This document shows positions 1-5,974 of a stretch of 5,974 nt of DNA, piece after piece. The DNA lies in the IMG/VR virus record IMGVR_UViG_2541047595_000008, positions 1 through 5,974 of that record; one strand, 5' to 3'. The DNA is from a virus. Taxonomy: Duplodnaviria; Heunggongvirae; Uroviricota; Caudoviricetes. Positions within the stretch are counted from its first letter, which is position 1; each line of letters opens with the position of its first letter. A program made the position numbers and the translations under genes. The notes beneath the pieces were generated by a model. It was not told the DNA's origin. It saw only the letters and a program-made list of their open reading frames with translations, and ran no database searches.

Positions 1-411
1 GCAGCATTTTCTTCTGAAATGTATCCCAAACTGGCAAAGGTTTATCCAACGTTAAAATTACCTGATTTACGCGGTGAGTTTATCCGTGGTTGGGATGATG
101 GGCGAGGGATTGACTCTGGTCGCTCTATTTTAAGCGAGCAAGGATATGCAACGGAGGATCATGCTCACGGATTACCGTCAAAATCAACCGTAGCAACTGA
201 CCGCTCAATTAATTTCTACTTTGACGAGGCATGGGCTACTAGTGGTAATACGGGAGTTATCAGATGGGGGAACACAAGCGATGCAGGATTGCCAGCCCCT
301 AATTATGGAACTTTTAAAACATATAAACAGTCCGTAGCTAATTTAGGTACTGCTGGCTTAGAAACCCGCCCTCGTAATATTGCATTTAATTATATTGTGA
401 GGGCGGATTAA
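1..411 (+). CDS. Tail-fibre C-terminal variable domain Sv0 (5'-partial; gene continues upstream of window); probably the currently expressed variant
   Basis: Frame 1 is open from base 1 (AAFSSEMYPKLAKVYPTLKLPDLRGEFIRGWDDGRGIDSGR...) to TAA at 409..411. It carries the same conserved N-block and the same C-terminal tail (ETRPRNIAFNYIVRAD) as the minus-strand cassettes. The ORF-track start at 19 is an internal Met. Confidence 0.8.
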   Translation, partial: AAFSSEMYPKLAKVYPTLKLPDLRGEFIRGWDDGRGIDSGRSILSEQGYATEDHAHGLPSKSTVATDRSINFYFDEAWATSGNTGVIRWGNTSDAGLPAPNYGTFKTYKQSVANLGTAGLETRPRNIAFNYIVRAD

Positions 412-416
412 TTATA

Positions 417-1028
417 TCAACTGGCTGTAGAAAGTTGTTTTTCAGGCCAGTTGAGATCTGGTGCCGTGGTTAAATCCATCGCGTTCAGCTCGTCTATATA
501 ATCTAGCACGGAGTTAAGCTGCGTGGTTTCTGCCTGCGTCAACTTCCGTCCAGCCCGTAATTTCAACTGAATCAGACTAATGGAATCCATCGCAGTATCA
601 ATCAATGACTGACGTTTTGTTTCTGCTGCCTCTACAGCTGCACTATGTTGAGCCTCAGTATCAACCACCCATTTCTCTCCATCCCATTTGTCGTATGGTG
701 TTAGCGGGGCGATAGTGGTTGTATTTTCCGGATAGTCACCCAACACCGTGATTTCTTCGGGATTCCCAGTGTCAATGCTATAGACAGTTTCGCCACGATG
801 ATCTGGCACATACTCCCATGAACTTAAATCCTCTGAACGGAGAATCGCATAACCTGCTTTATGTGAGCCTGGAGCATCCAAACAAGAATTTGCCGGAATA
901 CCAACGCCAACAGCAAGATATTCAGTTGATGCAGAAATATATTCCCGATTACCACCATCATAGTTATAAACGATAATGTTTCCTGCCTGTATGGCTATAA
1001 GTTCGCTATTTAATATCGCATTATCCAT
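417..1028 (-). CDS. tfa: Tail-fibre assembly protein (Tfa / Mu-U-like chaperone), 203 aa
   Basis: The protein shows the Tfa pattern I recall from lambda Tfa and Mu/P1 U: GIPANS, DHRGETVY, PEN..T, KW.G..WV.DTEA and a C-terminal TAPDLNWP. Its ATG overlaps the stop of cassette A by 1 nt (TAATG on the minus strand). Confidence 0.85.
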   Translation of the reverse strand: MDNAILNSELIAIQAGNIIVYNYDGGNREYISASTEYLAVGVGIPANSCLDAPGSHKAGYAILRSEDLSSWEYVPDHRGETVYSIDTGNPEEITVLGDYPENTTTIAPLTPYDKWDGEKWVVDTEAQHSAAVEAAETKRQSLIDTAMDSISLIQLKLRAGRKLTQAETTQLNSVLDYIDELNAMDLTTAPDLNWPEKQLSTAS

Positions 1029-1486
1029 TATGCTGCTCTCACAATATAATTGAAGGCAATGTTACGTGGGCGGGTTTCATTCCCCCCAGATAACTCCGTT
1101 CTGTATTGACTGGTAAATTTACCATTAATCGCTCCTTCTTGGACGGCGTTATCTGTCGACAACAGACTATCCCCCCCTCTGTCATTTGGCACCAATACCG
1201 TGTTATCCCACGCGTCCCATGACCGAATATTATGATAATGACTTCCTGTTAACCACCCCTGTATGCTTAAGATGACCCTTCCCGCATCCACACCTCGCCC
1301 ATCATCCCAACCACGGATAAACTCACCGCGTAAATCCGGTAATTTATTGGTGGGATAAGCCTTTGCCAGATTTGGGTACTTTTCAGAAGAAAATGCTGCA
1401 CCATTGCATTTCAGCCACCCCGTTGGAGGTGTGGCTGAGGGCCACGGAACAGGTACACCAACGGGCAGCGCCGAGCCTTCTCCTAA
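1028..1486 (-). CDS. Silent tail-fibre C-terminal cassette A (no start codon; coupled to tfa)
   Basis: Manual translation shows the minus-strand frame open from site 1 down to TAA at 1028..1030: LGEGSALPVGVPVPWPSATPPTGWLKCNGAAFSSEKYPNLAKAYPTNKLPDLRGEFIRGWDDGRGVDAGRV...ETRPRNIAFNYIVRAA. The ORF track reports only 1028..1291 because the first usable start codon is an internal GTG. Confidence 0.75.
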   Translation of the reverse strand, partial: LGEGSALPVGVPVPWPSATPPTGWLKCNGAAFSSEKYPNLAKAYPTNKLPDLRGEFIRGWDDGRGVDAGRVILSIQGWLTGSHYHNIRSWDAWDNTVLVPNDRGGDSLLSTDNAVQEGAINGKFTSQYRTELSGGNETRPRNIAFNYIVRAA

Positions 1487-1503
1487 ACCAACGTTTCTAT
1501 GCC
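1478..1503 (-). repeat. Invertase crossover site 1 (hix/gix/cix-like, 26 bp)
   Basis: ttctcctaaacc-aa-cgtttctatgcc. Two imperfect inverted 12-bp half-sites flank a central AA dinucleotide. The aaacc-aa-cgttt core matches my recollection of hixL (AAACC-AA-GGTTT). It sits at the 5' boundary of cassette A. Confidence 0.7.
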
Positions 1504-1958
1504 GCTCTTACGATGTAATTAAATGCAATATTACGGGGGCGAGCTGATACATAAGCCCACCAGTCATATTTTTTGGCACCTTTACTGGATGCATCAAATA
1601 TCCACTTTTTGCCATTTATGGCCCCCCATTGATTAGAGGTTAAAGTGTCACCAAATCCGTATTGTGTTGAGCTGAGTGAACTGATATCCCCAGTATCATT
1701 ATCATCAAAACCGGAGACGATAGTGCCTTCCTGAAATGAAAGTATCTCTCGTCCTGCATCAATACCTCGTCCGTCATCCCAGCCACGGATAAATTCGCCC
1801 CGTAAATCCGGTAATTTATTGGTCGGATAAGCCTTTGCCAGCCTGGGGTACATTTCAGAAGAAAATGCTGCTCCGTTACATTTCAGCCAGCCCGTTGGTG
1901 GTGTGGCTGAGGGCCACGGAACGGGCACACCAACAGGCAGTGCAGAGCCTTCCCCCAA
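1497..1958 (-). CDS. Silent tail-fibre C-terminal cassette B
   Basis: 153-aa ORF. The apparent start is a TTG lying inside crossover site 2. It has the conserved N-block (GEGSALPVGVPVPWPSATPPTGWLKCNGAAFSSEMYP...KLPDLRGEFIRGWDDGRG), a unique middle and the invariant C-terminal RPRNIAFNYIVRAA. Confidence 0.75.
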   Translation of the reverse strand: MGEGSALPVGVPVPWPSATPPTGWLKCNGAAFSSEMYPRLAKAYPTNKLPDLRGEFIRGWDDGRGIDAGREILSFQEGTIVSGFDDNDTGDISSLSSTQYGFGDTLTSNQWGAINGKKWIFDASSKGAKKYDWWAYVSARPRNIAFNYIVRAA

Positions 1959-1975
1959 ACCAACGTTTTTATGTG
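1950..1975 (-). repeat. Invertase crossover site 2
   Basis: ttcccccaaacc-aa-cgtttttatgtg. The stop codon of cassette C (plus-strand tta at 1969..1971) is embedded in the outer half-site. Confidence 0.7.
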
Positions 1976-2472
1976 GCCCTTACAATGTAATTAAAAGCAA
2001 CGTTGCGGGGGCGCATTGATATCCATGCCCCGGTAAAATTATCCTCTGCCGTCCTTTGAGTGCCTGTTATGGAGTTATCTGATGATGCTGGAACATAATC
2101 GCTATTATCTCCTGCTTTAGGATTAGCAGGGTTTCCAACAGTTATAACAGAATCAGCAGTAGCATAAGCGATACCTACTTTGACATTAGTAGTCAGATCG
2201 ACACCGTAATAATCCTGCAAAGCTGTACGAATAAATGTTGCAGTCTGACCACTTAGCAATGAACGCCCTGTATCAATCCCTCTCGAATCATCCCAACCAC
2301 GGATAAACTCACCGCGTAAATCAGGTAATTTTAACGTTGGGTAAACCTTTGCCAGATTTGGGTACTTTTCAGAAGAAAATGCTGCTCCGTTACATTTCAG
2401 CCACCCCGTTGGTGGTGTGGCGGAGGGCCACGGAACAGGTACACCAACGGGCAGTGCCGAGCCTTCCCCTAA
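1969..2472 (-). CDS. Silent tail-fibre C-terminal cassette C
   Basis: Manual translation shows the frame open from site 3 to the stop at 1969: LGEGSALPVGVPVPWPSATPPTGWLKCNGAAFSSEKYPNLAKVYPTLKLPDLRGEFIRGWDDSRGIDTGRSLLSGQTATF...RPRNVAFNYIVRAT. The ORF track shows only 1969..2259 because no start codon lies upstream of the TTG at 2259. Confidence 0.75.
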   Translation of the reverse strand, partial: LGEGSALPVGVPVPWPSATPPTGWLKCNGAAFSSEKYPNLAKVYPTLKLPDLRGEFIRGWDDSRGIDTGRSLLSGQTATFIRTALQDYYGVDLTTNVKVGIAYATADSVITVGNPANPKAGDNSDYVPASSDNSITGTQRTAEDNFTGAWISMRPRNVAFNYIVRAT

Positions 2473-2489
2473 ACCAACGTTTTTATGCC
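2464..2489 (-). repeat. Invertase crossover site 3
   Basis: ttcccctaaacc-aa-cgtttttatgcc. Confidence 0.7.
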
Positions 2490-2986
2490 GCCCTTACGAT
2501 GTAATTAAATGCAACGTTGCGAGGGCGAGTTTCTGTACCTACATTTCCACTAATTTCACCATAACGTTTAACACTACGAGAGCTAATAGCTCGTAGTGAG
2601 GAAGGCACCTTATGACCGGGTTCGTCCGTTTTAACTATTCCCCCGTCACCGTATGTAGCTAGTATTCCTGGATTGACGCCTTCCCGTGCACTTCCTGCGG
2701 CGAGTCCGTCCCCTGTCCATAATTCCATATAGTGTGCATGGTCCAAAATTGTGTGTGGCTGCCAATTAAGCAAAGCGCGGCCAGCATCCACCCCGCGCCC
2801 ATCATCCCAACCGCGAATAAATTCTCCCCGTAAATCCGGTAATTTATTGGTGGGGTAGGCTTTTGCCAGTTTGGGATACATTTCAGAAGAAAATGCTGCA
2901 CCATTGCATTTCAGCCAGCCCGTTGGTGGTGTTTCTAAGGGCCACGGAACGGGCACGCCAACGGGCAGTGCAGAGCCTTCCCCCAA
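2483..2986 (-). CDS. Silent tail-fibre C-terminal cassette D
   Basis: 167-aa ORF with the conserved N-block (variant WPLETPP), a unique middle and the C-terminal ETRPRNVAFNYIVRAA. Its apparent TTG start lies in site 4. Confidence 0.75.
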   Translation of the reverse strand: MGEGSALPVGVPVPWPLETPPTGWLKCNGAAFSSEMYPKLAKAYPTNKLPDLRGEFIRGWDDGRGVDAGRALLNWQPHTILDHAHYMELWTGDGLAAGSAREGVNPGILATYGDGGIVKTDEPGHKVPSSLRAISSRSVKRYGEISGNVGTETRPRNVAFNYIVRAA

Positions 2987-3003
2987 ACCAACGTTTCTAT
3001 GCC
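2978..3003 (-). repeat. Invertase crossover site 4
   Basis: ttcccccaaacc-aa-cgtttctatgcc. Confidence 0.7.
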
Positions 3004-3428
3004 GCTCTTACGATGTAATTAAATGCAATATTACGAGGGCGAGATTCTCTCCCCCCCACCGAGTTAGTGCTATCCGATCTCTGTTGAATTACTGAGCCAG
3101 AAACATCAGCGGCTAAAAGATAATATCCACCTGTTGTATCAAATCCAGTTTGTGCCCATGTTCTTTCGAAATAATGACTATGTGATTTAAATTCATCTGT
3201 TTGAGTTGATAATAACGCGCGCCCACTATCCACTCCACGCCCATCATCCCAACCACGGATAAACTCACCGCGTAAATCCGGCAATTTATTGGTGGGGTAA
3301 GCCCTTGCCAGATTTGGGTACATTTCAGAAGAAAATGCTGCGCCGTTACATTTCAGCCACCCTGCTGGCGGTGTGGCTGAGGGCCACGGAACAGGCACAC
3401 CAACGGGCAGCGCAGAGCCTTCCCCCAA
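2997..3428 (-). CDS. Silent tail-fibre C-terminal cassette E
   Basis: 143-aa ORF with the conserved N-block (variant PPAGW), a unique middle and the C-terminal SRPRNIAFNYIVRAA. Confidence 0.75.
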   Translation of the reverse strand: MGEGSALPVGVPVPWPSATPPAGWLKCNGAAFSSEMYPNLARAYPTNKLPDLRGEFIRGWDDGRGVDSGRALLSTQTDEFKSHSHYFERTWAQTGFDTTGGYYLLAADVSGSVIQQRSDSTNSVGGRESRPRNIAFNYIVRAA

Positions 3429-3445
3429 ACCAACGTTTTTATGCC
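3420..3445 (-). repeat. Invertase crossover site 5
   Basis: ttcccccaaacc-aa-cgtttttatgcc. Confidence 0.7.
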
Positions 3446-3915
3446 GCCCTTACGATGTAATTAAATGCGATATTTCGTGGACGGGTTTCACTCCCGCCAG
3501 TATTACCAATACTCCCTCGAGAATGAAGTGTCGGTGATGGAATCAAATTCCCTCCTGTATTTGAGGCATCAAGCCCCCGTCCTTGTGTGTATGTTTTTTT
3601 GAAAATTGTCGCCAGCTCCCATTCATCTTTTGTGTCGTAACCATCATTGGCTACAACAATATGTCGGTGCTTTTCCAGCATTCCTGTCTGAATGCTCAAT
3701 AAAGCACGTCCCGCATCCACCCCGCGCCCATCATCCCAGCCGCGAATAAATTCTCCCCGTAAATCCGGTAATTTATTGGTGGGATAAGCCTTTGCCAGCC
3801 TGGGGTACATTTCAGAAGAAAATGCTGCTCCGTTGCATTTTAGCCAGCCTGTTGGCGGAGTGGCTGAGGGCCACGGAACAGGTACGCCAACAGGCAATGC
3901 AGAGCCTTCCCCCAA
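3439..3915 (-). CDS. Silent tail-fibre C-terminal cassette F
   Basis: 158-aa ORF with the conserved N-block, a unique middle and the C-terminal ETRPRNIAFNYIVRAA. Confidence 0.75.
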   Translation of the reverse strand: MGEGSALPVGVPVPWPSATPPTGWLKCNGAAFSSEMYPRLAKAYPTNKLPDLRGEFIRGWDDGRGVDAGRALLSIQTGMLEKHRHIVVANDGYDTKDEWELATIFKKTYTQGRGLDASNTGGNLIPSPTLHSRGSIGNTGGSETRPRNIAFNYIVRAA

Positions 3916-3932
3916 ACCAACGTTTTTATGCC
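3907..3932 (-). repeat. Invertase crossover site 6
   Basis: ttcccccaaacc-aa-cgtttttatgcc, identical to sites 5 and 7. Confidence 0.7.
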
Positions 3933-4393
3933 GCCCTTACGATATAATTAAACGCAATATTACGGGGGCGGGTTTCAGATGCTGTACGAACTGAGCGAGA
4001 GGCGTCGAATGTCCAGTTATAAGCGCCATAACCCTCAATAATTTCCGTTTCCTTTAGGCCTGTAGATAATACTTGACCATGTTGACTAAATGGCCCTGAA
4101 CTAAGTACATCTCTAAAAAGCTGAGTACGCCCGAAAGAACCAACAATATTCTGAATTGCATCATTCTGTGCAGATAATAAATTACGGCCAGAGTCAATCC
4201 CCCGCCCGTCATCCCAGCCGCGAATAAATTCGCCCCGTAGATCCGGCAATTTATTAGTGGGGTAAACCTTTGCCAGATTTGGGTACTTTTCAGAAGAAAA
4301 TGCTGCTCCGTTACATTTCAGCCACCCCGTTGGTGGTGTGGCGGAGGGCCATGGAACAGGTACACCAACGGGCAGTGCCGAGCCTTCCCCCAA
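3926..4393 (-). CDS. Silent tail-fibre C-terminal cassette G
   Basis: 155-aa ORF with the conserved N-block, a unique middle and the C-terminal ETRPRNIAFNYIVRAA. Confidence 0.75.
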   Translation of the reverse strand: MGEGSALPVGVPVPWPSATPPTGWLKCNGAAFSSEKYPNLAKVYPTNKLPDLRGEFIRGWDDGRGIDSGRNLLSAQNDAIQNIVGSFGRTQLFRDVLSSGPFSQHGQVLSTGLKETEIIEGYGAYNWTFDASRSVRTASETRPRNIAFNYIVRAA

Positions 4394-4410
4394 ACCAACG
4401 TTTTTATGCC
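4385..4410 (-). repeat. Invertase crossover site 7
   Basis: ttcccccaaacc-aa-cgtttttatgcc. Confidence 0.7.
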
Positions 4411-4832
4411 GCCCTTACGATGTAATTAAATGCGATATTTCGCGGCCTGACAGCAACAAAATTTATACCATCACCTACAGAGTTACTGGTGAAATTAAAT
4501 CGTGAAAATCCTGGCTGATTTCCGACGATGCCATCATGAAAATTAATTGCGTGCCCCGCACCATCGCCTATATTTCCGGCACGCTGAGAAAAGTTTGTAG
4601 CCTCTTGGCTGCTTAATAATGCTCGCCCATTGTCCACACCTCGTCCATCATCCCAACCTCGAATAAATTCGCCCCGTAGATCCGGCAATTTATTGGTGGG
4701 GTAAACCTTTGCCAGATTTGGGTACTTTTCAGAAGAAAATGCTGCTCCGTTACATTTCAGCCACCCCGTTGGTGGTGTGGCGGAGGGCCATGGAACAGGT
4801 ACACCAACGGGCAGCGCCGAGCCTTCCCCTAA
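4404..4832 (-). CDS. Silent tail-fibre C-terminal cassette H (outermost, next to the invertase)
   Basis: Manual translation from site 8 is open: LGEGSALPVGVPVPWPSATPPTGWLKCNGA... continuing in the same frame into ORF 4404..4688 (LPDLRGEFIRGWDDGRGVDNGR...VRPRNIAFNYIVRAA). The ORF track is shorter because the first start-capable codon is the TTG at 4686..4688. Confidence 0.7.
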   Translation of the reverse strand, partial: LGEGSALPVGVPVPWPSATPPTGWLKCNGAAFSSEKYPNLAKVYPTNKLPDLRGEFIRGWDDGRGVDNGRALLSSQEATNFSQRAGNIGDGAGHAINFHDGIVGNQPGFSRFNFTSNSVGDGINFVAVRPRNIAFNYIVRAA

Positions 4833-4849
4833 ACCAACGTTTTAGTCTT
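4824..4849 (-). repeat. Invertase crossover site 8 (array boundary site)
   Basis: ttcccctaaacc-aa-cgttttagtctt. The inner half-site and core match the other seven. The outer half-site diverges, with no preceding cassette and no embedded stop codon, as expected for the edge of the invertible region. Confidence 0.65.
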
Positions 4850-4886
4850 AATCCCTACCTATACCAACGATGTATTTTTAACTAAA

Positions 4887-4893
4887 CAAAGAG
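4887..4893 (+). promoter_or_regulatory. Ribosome-binding site of the invertase gene
   Basis: aaagagg lies 10 nt upstream of the ATG at 4904. Confidence 0.5.
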
Positions 4894-4903
4894 GTTGTTT
4901 TTC

Positions 4904-5476
4904 ATGCAAATTGGCTACATTCGTGTGTCAACAAATGACCAAAACACAGATTTACAAAGAAATGCACTGAACTGCGCAGGATGTGAACTGATTTTTGAAG
5001 ATAAAATAAGCGGAACAAAGTCAGCCAGACCAGGCTTGAAAAAGCTGCTCAGAACGTTATCAGAAGGAGATACGCTGGTTGTCTGGAAGCTGGATAGGCT
5101 TGGCAGAAGTATGAAACACCTTATCACGCTTATAGAGGAGTTGCGGGAAAAAGGTGTTAATTTCCGTAGTCTGACAGACAGTATTGACACATCAACACCC
5201 ATGGGGCGTTTCTTTTTTCATGTCATGGGTGCTTTAGCAGAAATGGAACGTGAATTAATTGTTGAGAGAACACTGGCCGGACTGGCAGCTGCACGCGAAC
5301 AGGGACGCATTGGCGGACGTCGCCCGAAGTTGACAAAAGAACAACATGAGCAAATAGCGAGGTTGATCGAAAATGGCTACAGCAGGAAACAGTTGGCAAT
5401 TATTTACGATATCGGTGTATCGACGATTTATCGTTATCATCCTGTAGAGAAGCGCCAAACTCAATCTGAGCTGTAA
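4904..5476 (+). CDS. Serine DNA invertase of the Gin/Cin/Hin/Pin/Min family (190 aa)
   Basis: MQIGYIRVSTNDQNTDLQRNAL...TLVVWKLDRLGRSMKHL...SLTDSIDTS.PMGRFFFHVMGALAEMERELI.ERT.AGLAAAR..GRIGGR is close to colinear with Gin and Cin as I recall them. The catalytic Ser is at position 9 and there is a C-terminal HTH (GVSTIYRY). The true start is the ATG at 4904; the ORF-track start is an upstream TTG at 4895. Stop is TAA at 5474..5476. Confidence 0.95.
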   Translation: MQIGYIRVSTNDQNTDLQRNALNCAGCELIFEDKISGTKSARPGLKKLLRTLSEGDTLVVWKLDRLGRSMKHLITLIEELREKGVNFRSLTDSIDTSTPMGRFFFHVMGALAEMERELIVERTLAGLAAAREQGRIGGRRPKLTKEQHEQIARLIENGYSRKQLAIIYDIGVSTIYRYHPVEKRQTQSEL

Positions 5477-5596
5477 TTCTAATGCCGCGTCGGTGTAATT
5501 TATCATGATAGAATAGGTACATTTATCGCGCGGCACATCAATTCGATGTATCTAGCGCCTGCTGACCGCTAATGAAAACTGTTCTCGAAATGTTGT

Positions 5597-5615
5597 CCCT
5601 AGTCCGAGACTAGGG
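5597..5615. other. Perfect 8-bp inverted repeat with a 3-nt loop (ccctagtc-cga-gactaggg)
   Basis: Seen directly in the sequence. No T-tract follows, so it is not a classical intrinsic terminator. It could be a protein-binding palindrome or an RNA hairpin. Confidence 0.25.
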
Positions 5616-5884
5616 TATCACCTCTGGAAAGCATACGCAGAACCTTTTTTAACCCAGGGTGCCCAGCCTTTTTGCTGCTCGCCTTATTCGCAAAAATTAG
5701 CTCACATCCTGCGCTTTCAAGTGCTTTTCACTGCATAGCTGTGTTTTGTTCATTTGTCTATATGCGTACATAGCCTATTAGCATATTTTTTGCCCACTAT
5801 CGTTATTTATTGCAAGCCACAGGTTTTAATTAACAAAACCAGTGTGTGTGGAAATCACAAAGTGCATACCGTTCTCAAATGTTG

Positions 5885-5974
5885 GGCTTTGTTGAATAAA
5901 TCGAACTTTTGCTGAGTTGAAGGATCAGATCACGCATCTTCCCGACAACGCAGACCGTTCCGTGGCAAAGCAAA
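5885..5974. mobile_element. Terminus of an IS903-group (IS5-family) insertion sequence; element continues beyond the window
   Basis: ggctttgttgaataaatc at 5885..5902 matches my recollection of the 18-bp IS903 terminal inverted repeat. The following ~70 bp (gaacttttgctgagttgaaggatcagatcacgcatcttcccgacaacgcagaccgttccgtggcaaagcaaa) matches the IS903 remnant I remember flanking the Tn903 kanamycin cassette in common vectors. This is from memory, not from a search. Confidence 0.6.

Follow-up and report, generated by a model that had tools for sequence, protein, structure and literature searches.

Crossover sites of a probable Min-type multiple DNA inversion region in a P1/p15B-like phage-plasmid

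We analyzed a stretch of 5,974 nucleotides of viral DNA (Caudoviricetes; IMG/VR record IMGVR_UViG_2541047595_000008, positions 1 to 5,974), referred to here as the window, and conclude that it is very probably the invertible region of a P1/p15B-like phage-plasmid with a Min-type multiple DNA inversion system. Eight repeats within the window are the crossover (mix-type) sites of this multiple-inversion region, and at each of them two silent tail-fibre C-terminal cassettes of the minus strand meet. The finding itself is already known biology, namely a Min/Cin-type invertase switch with which P1/p15B-like phage-plasmids shuffle their tail-fibre tips; tail-fibre inversion switches entered the textbooks with the work of 1982-1992.

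An array of silent tail-fibre cassettes

Eight minus-strand cassettes and one plus-strand cassette are encoded in the window, together with eight crossover sites and one chaperone gene. The cassette part of the array is composed as follows.

1-411, plus strand: 3' part of a tail-fibre C-terminal cassette (166-aa type, CL9), with TAA at 409-411; the ORF at 19-411 ends in ...ETRPRNIAFNYIVRAD
417-1028, minus strand: tail-fibre assembly (chaperone) gene tfa, a 203-aa ORF and the only chaperone gene in the array
1028-1490, minus strand: cassette starting at site 1 (153-aa type, CL7), directly followed by tfa; its core-to-stop translation clusters with 21 copies in other loci
1491-4836, minus strand: seven silent cassette modules, cut mid-core, with exact copies elsewhere (1491-1962, 1963-2476, 2477-2990, 2991-3432, 3433-3919, 3920-4397 and 4398-4836; 472, 514, 514, 442, 487, 478 and 439 bp)

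The cassette at 1-411 is the far arm of a 1581-bp double segment (cassette, tfa, cassette), and window positions 1-1490 show 4-12 differences from the last 1490 nt of that segment in loci L012, L027, L028, L030, L032 and L033. The ATG of tfa and the stop codon of the preceding cassette overlap (TAATG). The exact tfa protein carries the Pfam domains Caudo_TAP_N and Caudo_TAP; 4053 blocks of the assembly collection index it. In relatives, the cassettes are preceded by a constant fibre gene that has Phage_fiber_2 repeats, and the locus as a whole belongs to P1-like phage-plasmids, with sit, baseplate, R, S, cassettes, tfa, invertase, holins and darA. A scan for promoters and terminators returned fewer matches than in shuffles and was thus uninformative, and no NCBIfam family reached its cutoff in a search with the invertase, tfa and one cassette.

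Eight crossover sites at the cassette junctions

The exact 12-mer AAACCAACGTTT is found eight times in the window, always on the plus strand (1485, 1957, 2471, 2985, 3427, 3914, 4392 and 4831). When up to two mismatches are allowed there are nine matches, while 0.80 are expected (200 shuffles, largest 4). The additional match (AAAGCAACGTTG, 1994-2005, two mismatches) was rejected as a site; it falls where a cassette's conserved coding sequence ends (...RNVAFNY) and is without half-site context. The sites are listed below as left half, core and right half.

Site 1, 1478-1503, minus strand: TTCTCCTAAACC AA CGTTTCTATGCC; the TAG stop of the next cassette lies in the right half
Site 2, 1950-1975, minus strand: TTCCCCCAAACC AA CGTTTTTATGTG; the next cassette's ACA TAA (..VRAT*) lies in the right half
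Site 3, 2464-2489, minus strand: TTCCCCTAAACC AA CGTTTTTATGCC
Site 4, 2978-3003, minus strand: TTCCCCCAAACC AA CGTTTCTATGCC
Site 5, 3420-3445, minus strand: TTCCCCCAAACC AA CGTTTTTATGCC
Site 6, 3907-3932, minus strand: TTCCCCCAAACC AA CGTTTTTATGCC
Site 7, 4385-4410, minus strand: TTCCCCCAAACC AA CGTTTTTATGCC
Site 8, 4824-4849, minus strand: TTCCCCTAAACC AA CGTTTTAGTCTT; fixed boundary site adjoining the invertase gene

An earlier reading of the sequence alone had described eight 26-mers at 1478-4849 that share AAACC-AA-CGTTT, and both the 12-mer count and a comparison of the 26-mers agree with it exactly. The half-site variants that it gave for each site are likewise those in the extracted 26-mers: the left halves carry TTCTCCT (site 1), TTCCCCC (sites 2, 4, 5, 6 and 7) or TTCCCCT (sites 3 and 8), and the right halves are CGTTTCTATGCC (sites 1 and 4), CGTTTTTATGTG (site 2), CGTTTTTATGCC (sites 3, 5, 6 and 7) or CGTTTTAGTCTT (site 8). 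Site 8 diverges in its outer half only, as had been noticed, being identical to the other sites through CGTTTT and different thereafter; this outer half is also present in 18 sites of related loci, and it adjoins the invertase in every locus listed. The left half of a site encodes the first codons of one cassette, and the right half contains the last codon and the stop codon of the next. Conservation is not confined to the 26-mer, which is part of a repeat unit of ~260 bp of conserved coding sequence that extends from ~-210 to +50 around each core. The repeats themselves therefore do not set the 26-bp limits, which rest on analogy with hix, gix and cix. Compared by eye, the right (stop) halves match the dyad at ~5 of 12 positions, whereas the site in the fibre gene's constant part reaches 8 of 12; the right halves are weakly symmetric, and their strength as binding sites is assumed.

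All eight window sites are direct repeats of one another and for this reason cannot invert with each other. Their sole inversion partner would be an oppositely oriented site in the constant part (Sc) of the fibre gene, upstream of the window. We predict this partner to be TTCCCCCAAACC AA GGTAATCAAGAA, with the core placed ~91 nt upstream of the first window position; an inverted Sc site of this sequence is present in the near-identical elements L032 and L033. The sequence-only reading had proposed that an identical AA core allows inversion with any partner. The uniform core holds well beyond the window (TT/AA in 104/104 sites from 22 related loci and the window), but inversion with any partner does not hold for the present isomer with its eight direct repeats.

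A serine invertase and a probable enhancer

Two further features lie beside site 8.

4904-5476, plus strand: serine DNA invertase gene, Min type, 190 aa, with catalytic Ser9 in YIRVSTNDQ; adjoins site 8
4922-4993, no strand assigned: probable recombinational enhancer (Fis-binding) at the 5' end of the invertase gene, assigned by homology only

The invertase ORF is intact and the exact protein carries Pfam Resolvase and HTH_7 domains. Among solved structures, Gin is the best relative (4m6f, E = 3.9e-92, residues 1-185), a full-length match with YIRVSTNDQ conserved. It is identical at 138/190 residues to P1 Cin and at 190/190 to the invertase of pMCR_SCKP-LL83, which we used as a proxy for p15B in comparisons. 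The invertible region of pMCR_SCKP-LL83 is reported to be 99% identical to the p15B min region (PMC5786510). The putative enhancer is identical at 58 of 72 nt to the annotated "enhancer of Cin-mediated C-segment inversion", in the same codons of P1 cin. It includes a full Fis-consensus 15-mer, GCGCAGGATGTGAAC, at 4974-4988, which is conserved in P1, and a second G-N13-C 15-mer at 4925, 49 bp upstream of the first. These similarities make an enhancer with Fis binding inside the invertase gene probable.

An R64-type shufflon run by a tyrosine recombinase would have a superficially similar layout, with many short sites between alternative 3' gene ends. We give this explanation practically no credence, because the adjacent enzyme is a small serine recombinase closest to Gin, the sites have the cix/hix-like 12+2+12 structure, and there is no tyrosine recombinase ORF in the window.

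It is also conceivable that the array is a relic, with sites and invertase intact in sequence in a copy that no longer inverts, for example after damage to the partner site or to the phage. The single orientation of all eight sites and the position of the upstream partner outside the window, where it is unseen, would be compatible with this, as would an IS903B-family element 408 bp downstream of the invertase gene, with its end at 5885; because of this insertion the phage as a whole may be defective. An exact-match scan of genome contigs for the junction with this insertion sequence, aimed at the source contig and its upstream partner, gave no match, and look-ups of tfa, the invertase and the rarest cassette led to relatives only. 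However, the same arrangement with all sites on one side is found in L007 and L033, both of which have the Sc site, all cores are intact, and 14,962 blocks of the assembly collection index a protein with 100% identity to the invertase. We therefore regard a relic as improbable.

Exchange in natural isomers maps to the site centre

All seven core-to-core window modules are present at full length and with 0 mismatches in at least one other plasmid contig, in another order or orientation; the exact copies are in L012, L026, L027, L028, L030, L032 or L033 and have different neighbours. In 22 exact module matches, identity ends 1-24 nt past the core cut, with the tightest limits lying 6 nt to one side of the core and 1 nt to the other. 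Since identity stops so close to the cut, the exchange is confined to the 7 nt AAACCAA; natural variation resolves the exchange point to these 7 nt, not to the dinucleotide. Furthermore, two plasmids of equal length from isolates labelled strain 405 are exact isomers, composed of 7 core-cut segments that are each 100% identical and rearranged. These comparisons of assembled sequences show inversion with junctions at the site centre in close relatives of the present element. We also looked for within-culture isomers among the small extra contigs of GCF_052122755.1, and these had indels and no clean module matches. The proposal that crossover takes place at the central AA is supported by cix homology, by the adjacent intact invertase and by natural-isomer junctions within AAACCAA.

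A different origin of the rearrangements has to be weighed here, in which the repeats are simply conserved coding sequence of duplicated cassettes and the modules are rearranged by RecA-dependent homologous recombination between the ~260-bp repeats. The 26-mers are indeed conserved no better than the 200 nt to their left. The cassette 5' regions are also a recombination mosaic. Of 351 informative site pairs, 180 fail the four-gamete test (PHI-like P = 0.0006), and where "same" cassettes differ, the mismatches are clustered in tracts within nt 1-200. Such recombination, however, predicts breakpoints scattered over 200 bp of homology, whereas 22/22 exact module matches are bounded within 1-24 nt of the core and every core-cut segment of the strain 405 pair is fully identical. 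With an intact invertase and an enhancer homologue adjacent to the array as well, we consider RecA-dependent rearrangement very improbable.

Half-site variants and their pairing

The half-site variants are neutral coding polymorphisms. Both variable positions of the left half are third-codon positions (TTA/TTG Leu and GGA/GGG Gly), and the right-half variants are TAA/TAG stop-codon and GCA/ACA last-codon changes. Throughout the first 200 nt of the cassettes, 40/55 polymorphic columns are third codon positions. In the wider population several start-half variants occur within the same cassette type, four of them in the 153-aa type, and the left-half variants sit in the gene-conversion mosaic of the cassette 5' regions.

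The variants had been read as products of recombination at the core, with left and right halves assorting independently. Independent assortment is not established by the eight window sites, for which a mutual information of 0.643 compares with a mean of 0.634 under permutation (P = 0.57, in a window-only test without power). It is thus conceivable that the sites are genuine while their half-site variation holds no record of recombination, neutral drift and gene conversion having produced the same window pairings without core exchange. The coding nature of the variants and the several start halves within one cassette type speak for this explanation, as does the outcome of the assortment test. 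It accounts for the origin of the variants but not for their pairing: cassettes in L012, L032 and L033 keep the window's halves while their partners change, which requires exchange between the halves. In L032 and L033, which have 9 sites, the multiset of half-sites is that of the window but the pairings differ; half-sites consequently do reassort at the core, as the sequence-only reading had proposed. We therefore find drift without core exchange rather unlikely. As products of recombination, the pairings stand, while the variants themselves did not originate by recombination and are coding polymorphisms that travel with the adjacent cassette.

Two processes may be reassorting the sites: core exchange, which re-pairs the halves, and gene conversion across the ~200-bp cassette 5' regions, which moves left-half variants between cassettes. 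Concerted evolution of this kind may keep at least nine sites recombination-competent in an array larger than the six-site p15B. We offer this as a tentative suggestion and lean slightly against it; if true, it would make the array a natural example of recombination sites maintained through gene conversion.

A model for tail-fibre switching

These observations suggest a mechanism in which one tail-fibre gene has its constant 5' part, Sc, upstream of the window, ending in an oppositely oriented crossover site, and the window holds the alternative 3' ends of this gene. The serine invertase would bind the sites, and Fis on the enhancer within the invertase gene would help to pair the Sc site with any single site of opposite orientation. 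Both sites would be cut at the central AA/TT with a 2-nt stagger, after which half of the complex would turn by 180 degrees and the ends would be religated. The chosen cassette would thereby be fused in frame to Sc (...YLGLGEGS...) with all DNA between the two sites inverted, and repeated inversions would permute the modules. As half-sites stay with their own cassette, every site is a hybrid of two cassette ends whose pairings would change with each inversion. The anatomy, the homologies and the positions of junctions in natural isomers are observed directly; from the Hin/Gin/Cin paradigm we infer that the invertase binds the sites, where exactly it cleaves them, that it depends on Fis and that the present element is active.

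Such a switch would allow one phage-plasmid to display any of at least nine receptor-binding tips and so to have a broader host range, in an element family in which resistance genes such as mcr-1 are found as well. Every window module has already been sequenced elsewhere. The region also matters for sequence databases: annotations routinely present the silent cassettes as genes that start at a TTG inside the crossover site, and the invertible region breaks or duplicates assemblies.

Relation to known inversion systems

Among the closest known systems is Min/mix of plasmid p15B, described by Sandmeier, Iida, Arber and co-workers in 1990-1992. As in the window, the invertase gene is transcribed away from the invertible region in a P1-like backbone, the crossover sites number more than two and their invertible segments overlap, and the cassettes are 3' ends of one tail-fibre gene. 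The p15B array reportedly has six mix sites, whereas the present one has eight and the Sc site; an inversion-only model gives 240 isomers for 6 sites and 80,640 for 9, and 240 is also the number reported for p15B. The cassette set of pMCR_SCKP-LL83 overlaps that of the window only partly (69% of the window covered at 95% identity).

Cin/cix of P1 resembles the window in the inner half of its sites (GGTTTAGGAGAA compared with cix GGTTTAAGAGAA, which differ at 1/12 positions), in the TT/AA core, in the homologous invertase with an enhancer in the 5' end of its gene, and in the tail-fibre and chaperone logic. In contrast, P1 has two sites, with a separate chaperone for each of its two alternative Sv-U sets, and cin points toward the invertible segment while the window's invertase gene points away.

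The window further has the features of the Din family, namely a small serine recombinase with an N-terminal catalytic Ser9 and a C-terminal HTH, and 12+2+12 sites with a uniform core. Gin/gix (Mu), Hin/hix (Salmonella) and Pin (e14, P2-like prophages) share the 26-bp 12+2+12 sites but are two-site, two-state switches. Din-type systems use 26-bp sites and a Fis-dependent enhancer in an invertasome (PMC3798978) and make a 2-bp staggered cut, with mismatched cores blocking the reaction (PMC4817059); in Gin/Hin-type systems inversion is restricted to inverted sites (PMC3798978, PMC4817059). Prophage Phi2 of E. coli EC958 has active 26-bp sites whose inner halves, GGTTTAGGAGAA and GGTTTGGGGGAA, are those of the window (PMC4134206). 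The R64 (Rci) and bifidophage Rin shufflons also use multiple sites to shuffle alternative C-terminal gene segments, but they depend on tyrosine recombinases and have another site architecture (PMC6109161).

Anatomy of the cassette array

The exact 12-mer AAACCAACGTTT occurs eight times in the window, on the plus strand only (1485, 1957, 2471, 2985, 3427, 3914, 4392 and 4831), with site-to-site spacings of 472, 514, 514, 442, 487, 478 and 439 bp; with up to two mismatches the count rises to nine, compared with a shuffle expectation of 0.80. The half-site variants, left and right, that the sequence-only reading had listed for the eight 26-mers (1478-1503 to 4824-4849) agreed exactly on re-checking, as did its remark that site 8 departs in the outer half only: CGTTTT is common with the other sites and divergence beyond it is complete. 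From about -210 to about +50 relative to the core of the eight window sites, ungapped conservation lies between 0.8 and 1.0, and therefore the repeated unit is about 260 bp of coding sequence, in which the 26-mer is no isolated island. The 26-bp limits of the site are drawn by likeness to hix, gix and cix and are putative to that extent. The TT/AA core is present in 104 of 104 sites from 22 related loci and the window.

The minus-strand frame after each site reads GLGEGSALPVGVPVPWP...GWLKCNGA...LPDLRGEFIRGWDDGRG..., followed by a variable middle and then ...RPRN(I/V)AFNYIVRA(A/T)*. These frames are C-terminal cassettes of a tail fibre and carry the Pfam Collar domain; a C-terminal ...RPRNIAFNYIVRA motif is common to all of them. 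A site's left half provides the opening codons of the left-hand cassette; its right half provides the final codon and stop (GCA TAA, GCA TAG or ACA TAA) of the right-hand one. The features of the window are as follows.

409-411, plus strand: end of a ninth cassette, an open frame running into these positions
417-1028, minus strand: tail-fibre assembly gene (tfa), sole copy in the array, TAATG-coupled to cassette 1028-1490
1028-1490, minus strand: leftmost minus-strand cassette, with TAATG coupling to tfa
4904-5476, plus strand: serine invertase gene, 190 aa, starting 54 nt right of site 8
5885-5974, window end: opening 90 nt of an IS903B-family (IS5-like) insertion sequence, with its terminal inverted repeat (GGCTTTGTTGAATAAATCG...)

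There is one chaperone gene for at least nine cassettes, translationally coupled (TAATG) to a single one of them. In the window isomer this gene and the expressed fibre gene are on opposite strands. Public annotations and ORF finders alike begin the silent cassettes at a TTG within the crossover site (TTG GGG GAA, giving 'MGEGSALPVG...'; window 1497-4688), and where TTA replaces TTG (sites 1, 3 and 8) a shorter ORF is called from an internal start. Both kinds of start appear artefactual, since a cassette is a 3' gene segment and becomes coding only on fusion with the constant fibre-gene part.

Junctions in natural isomers

The sequence-only reading proposed that isomers be compared for reassortment of half-sites, and this comparison, run on public assemblies, supports both exchange at the core and reassortment. 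L013 and L014 are equally long plasmids whose source isolates bear the label strain 405. Both were cut mid-core; the seven resulting segments are all 100% identical between them and are rearranged, which requires at least four inversions under a model permitting inversion between oppositely oriented sites only. Outside the window, every one of its seven core-to-core modules (439-514 bp) recurs end to end with 0 mismatches in one or more contigs (L012, L026, L027, L028, L030, L032 and L033), in differing order and orientation. In the 22 exact module matches identity ends 1-24 nt past the cut, except for two in L032 that run more than 500 nt past it because the adjoining module is the same. Junctions are bounded most tightly to 6 nt towards the cassette start and to 1 nt in the other direction, the latter at a junction with the half-site of Sc, the constant 5' part of the fibre gene. 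These bounds place the exchange within AAACCAA, core included. Homologous recombination was considered as the cause of the rearrangements and rejected, since breakpoints cluster at the core; it probably acts instead as gene conversion within cassette 5' regions.

L032 and L033 have nine sites each, with a multiset of half-sites that equals the one from the eight window sites once the Sc half is added to it together with the unseen end of the double segment, a 1581-bp cassette-tfa-cassette unit. Pairings differ among the window, L032 and L033: TTCTCCT, for example, is joined to CGTTTCTATGCC, CGTTTTTATGCC and CGTTTTTATGTG, respectively.

Public assemblies often break in the cassette region (L032-L035 end inside it) or carry extra 2.4-2.6 kb contigs of cassette and tfa, such as L037 and L038 (NZ_JBQJRS010000019.1, ...16.1), which contain indels. 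Cultures that mix isomers would be expected to give such breaks and extra contigs.

Origin of the half-site variants

The half-sites had been read as products of recombination, and this is true of their pairing, which comes from site-specific exchange; the variants themselves are neutral coding polymorphisms that travel with the cassette ends. The left half varies at two positions, each the third of its codon (Leu TTA/TTG and Gly GGA/GGG); in cassette nt 1-200 these two open a series of 55 polymorphic columns, 40 of which are third positions. Right-half variants consist of the stop codon (TAA or TAG in the window, TGA elsewhere) and the last codon, and are largely fixed per cassette type. In the wider population a single cassette type can have as many as four start-half variants. 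Drift alone would account for the origin of the variants but leaves their re-pairing unexplained. Left and right halves had also been described as assorting independently; in the eight window sites only, the halves share a mutual information of 0.643, and permutation gives a mean of 0.634 (P = 0.57; possible range 0.30-1.30), so that the window alone lends this description no statistical weight.

Within the conserved cassette 5' regions (e.g. 4637-4836 and 4198-4397), all four gametes occur in 180 of the 351 informative site pairs, and compatibility in the first 200 nt is higher for neighbouring than for distant sites (PHI-like P = 0.0006). When the same cassette is compared across plasmids, mismatch tracts cluster in nt 1-200, e.g. 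at nt 97-121 or 163-178, and the variable part is identical or near-identical. This mosaic of mostly synonymous polymorphisms points to gene conversion among cassettes.

Inversion partners and proposed mechanism

It had been suggested that the AA core lets any sites invert productively. The eight window sites have a single orientation and an asymmetric AA/TT core, and what is established for enhancer-dependent invertases precludes inversion between any two of them: the invertasome aligns sites for inversion (PMC3798978), and the cut has a 2-bp stagger, with matching cores needed (PMC4817059). On the same grounds, the sole partner in the window isomer would be the inverted site that ends the constant fibre gene, which in the near-identical L032 and L033 is TTCCCCCAAACC AA GGTAATCAAGAA. 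If the same nine sites are present here, the Sc core would lie about 91 nt upstream of window position 1, the plus-strand cassette would be the one now expressed, and eight inversions would be possible from the present state, each framing a different cassette. Under the inversion model, six sites allow 240 arrangements and nine allow 80,640; 240 is reportedly the figure published for p15B.

Site sequence and orientation, coding anatomy, the homology of invertase, sites and enhancer region, and exact modular rearrangement in relatives with junctions in the sites are established here. Following the Hin/Gin/Cin paradigm, invertase dimers would bind every site, a Fis-enhancer invertasome would assemble, and the AA/TT core would be cut with a 2-nt stagger before 180-degree rotation and religation. 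By this analogy the window copy is presumably active; it could conceivably be an inactive relic, but neither the sites nor the invertase give any hint of that. Overall, exchange at the core and re-pairing of half-sites survive from the initial reading of the sites, and three of its points are corrected: the origin of the variants, the independent assortment within the window alone, and the free choice of partner.

Flanking insertion and related chromosomal loci

Similarity to related phage-plasmids ends at 5884. The insertion sequence lies 408 nt past the invertase stop codon, just upstream of the position, about 436 nt past that stop, at which the holin gene starts in relatives. Because the window ends in IS903B-family sequence, plasmid matches number at least 5000 records, mostly Klebsiella. 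The same tfa protein is encoded in L005, L008 and L011, and the same invertase protein in L022, all of which are chromosomal and have P2-like genes for tail or head. Just two sites are present in L005 and L008, flanking the double segment, which may be a simple two-state form and the source of multi-cassette arrays.

Comparison with known inversion systems

Piecewise matches at about 95% identity link the window to P1-like phage-plasmids of E. coli and Klebsiella; the gene order of these plasmids is baseplate, R, S (the constant fibre gene), cassettes, tfa, cassettes, invertase, holins and darA. The invertase is identical (190/190) to that of plasmid pMCR_SCKP-LL83, whose invertible region is reported to have 99% identity to the p15B min region (PMC5786510), and the exact protein is indexed in 14,962 blocks of the assembly collection. 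It shares 138 of 190 residues with P1 Cin and matches Gin (4m6f) over its full length (E = 3.9e-92). Nucleotides 19-90 of its gene (4922-4993) agree at 58 of 72 positions with the annotated enhancer of Cin-mediated inversion in P1, and a full Fis-consensus 15-mer at 4974-4988 is kept in P1. In prophage Phi2 of E. coli EC958 the active sites have the inner halves GGTTTAGGAGAA and GGTTTGGGGGAA, the same as those of the window (PMC4134206). The window carries a multiple inversion system of the Min/mix type, kin to Cin/cix, Gin/gix, Hin/hix and Pin (summarized in PMC6109161). A tyrosine-recombinase shufflon was excluded.

In P1 cixL/cixR the outer half is followed by TT GGTTTAAGAGAA, and in window site 1 by TT GGTTTAGGAGAA. 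Non-coding 5608-5873, 3' of the window invertase gene, is 89% identical to the region just upstream of P1 cin, which carries annotated predicted cin promoters; its relative orientation is opposite in the window, so that the window invertase gene points away from the invertible region and P1 cin points toward it. Many of the related loci compared have arrays with seven to nine sites. As to the crossover sites there is nothing new: the system is already known, and the window's element differs from p15B Min in having more sites, at least nine compared with the six of p15B.
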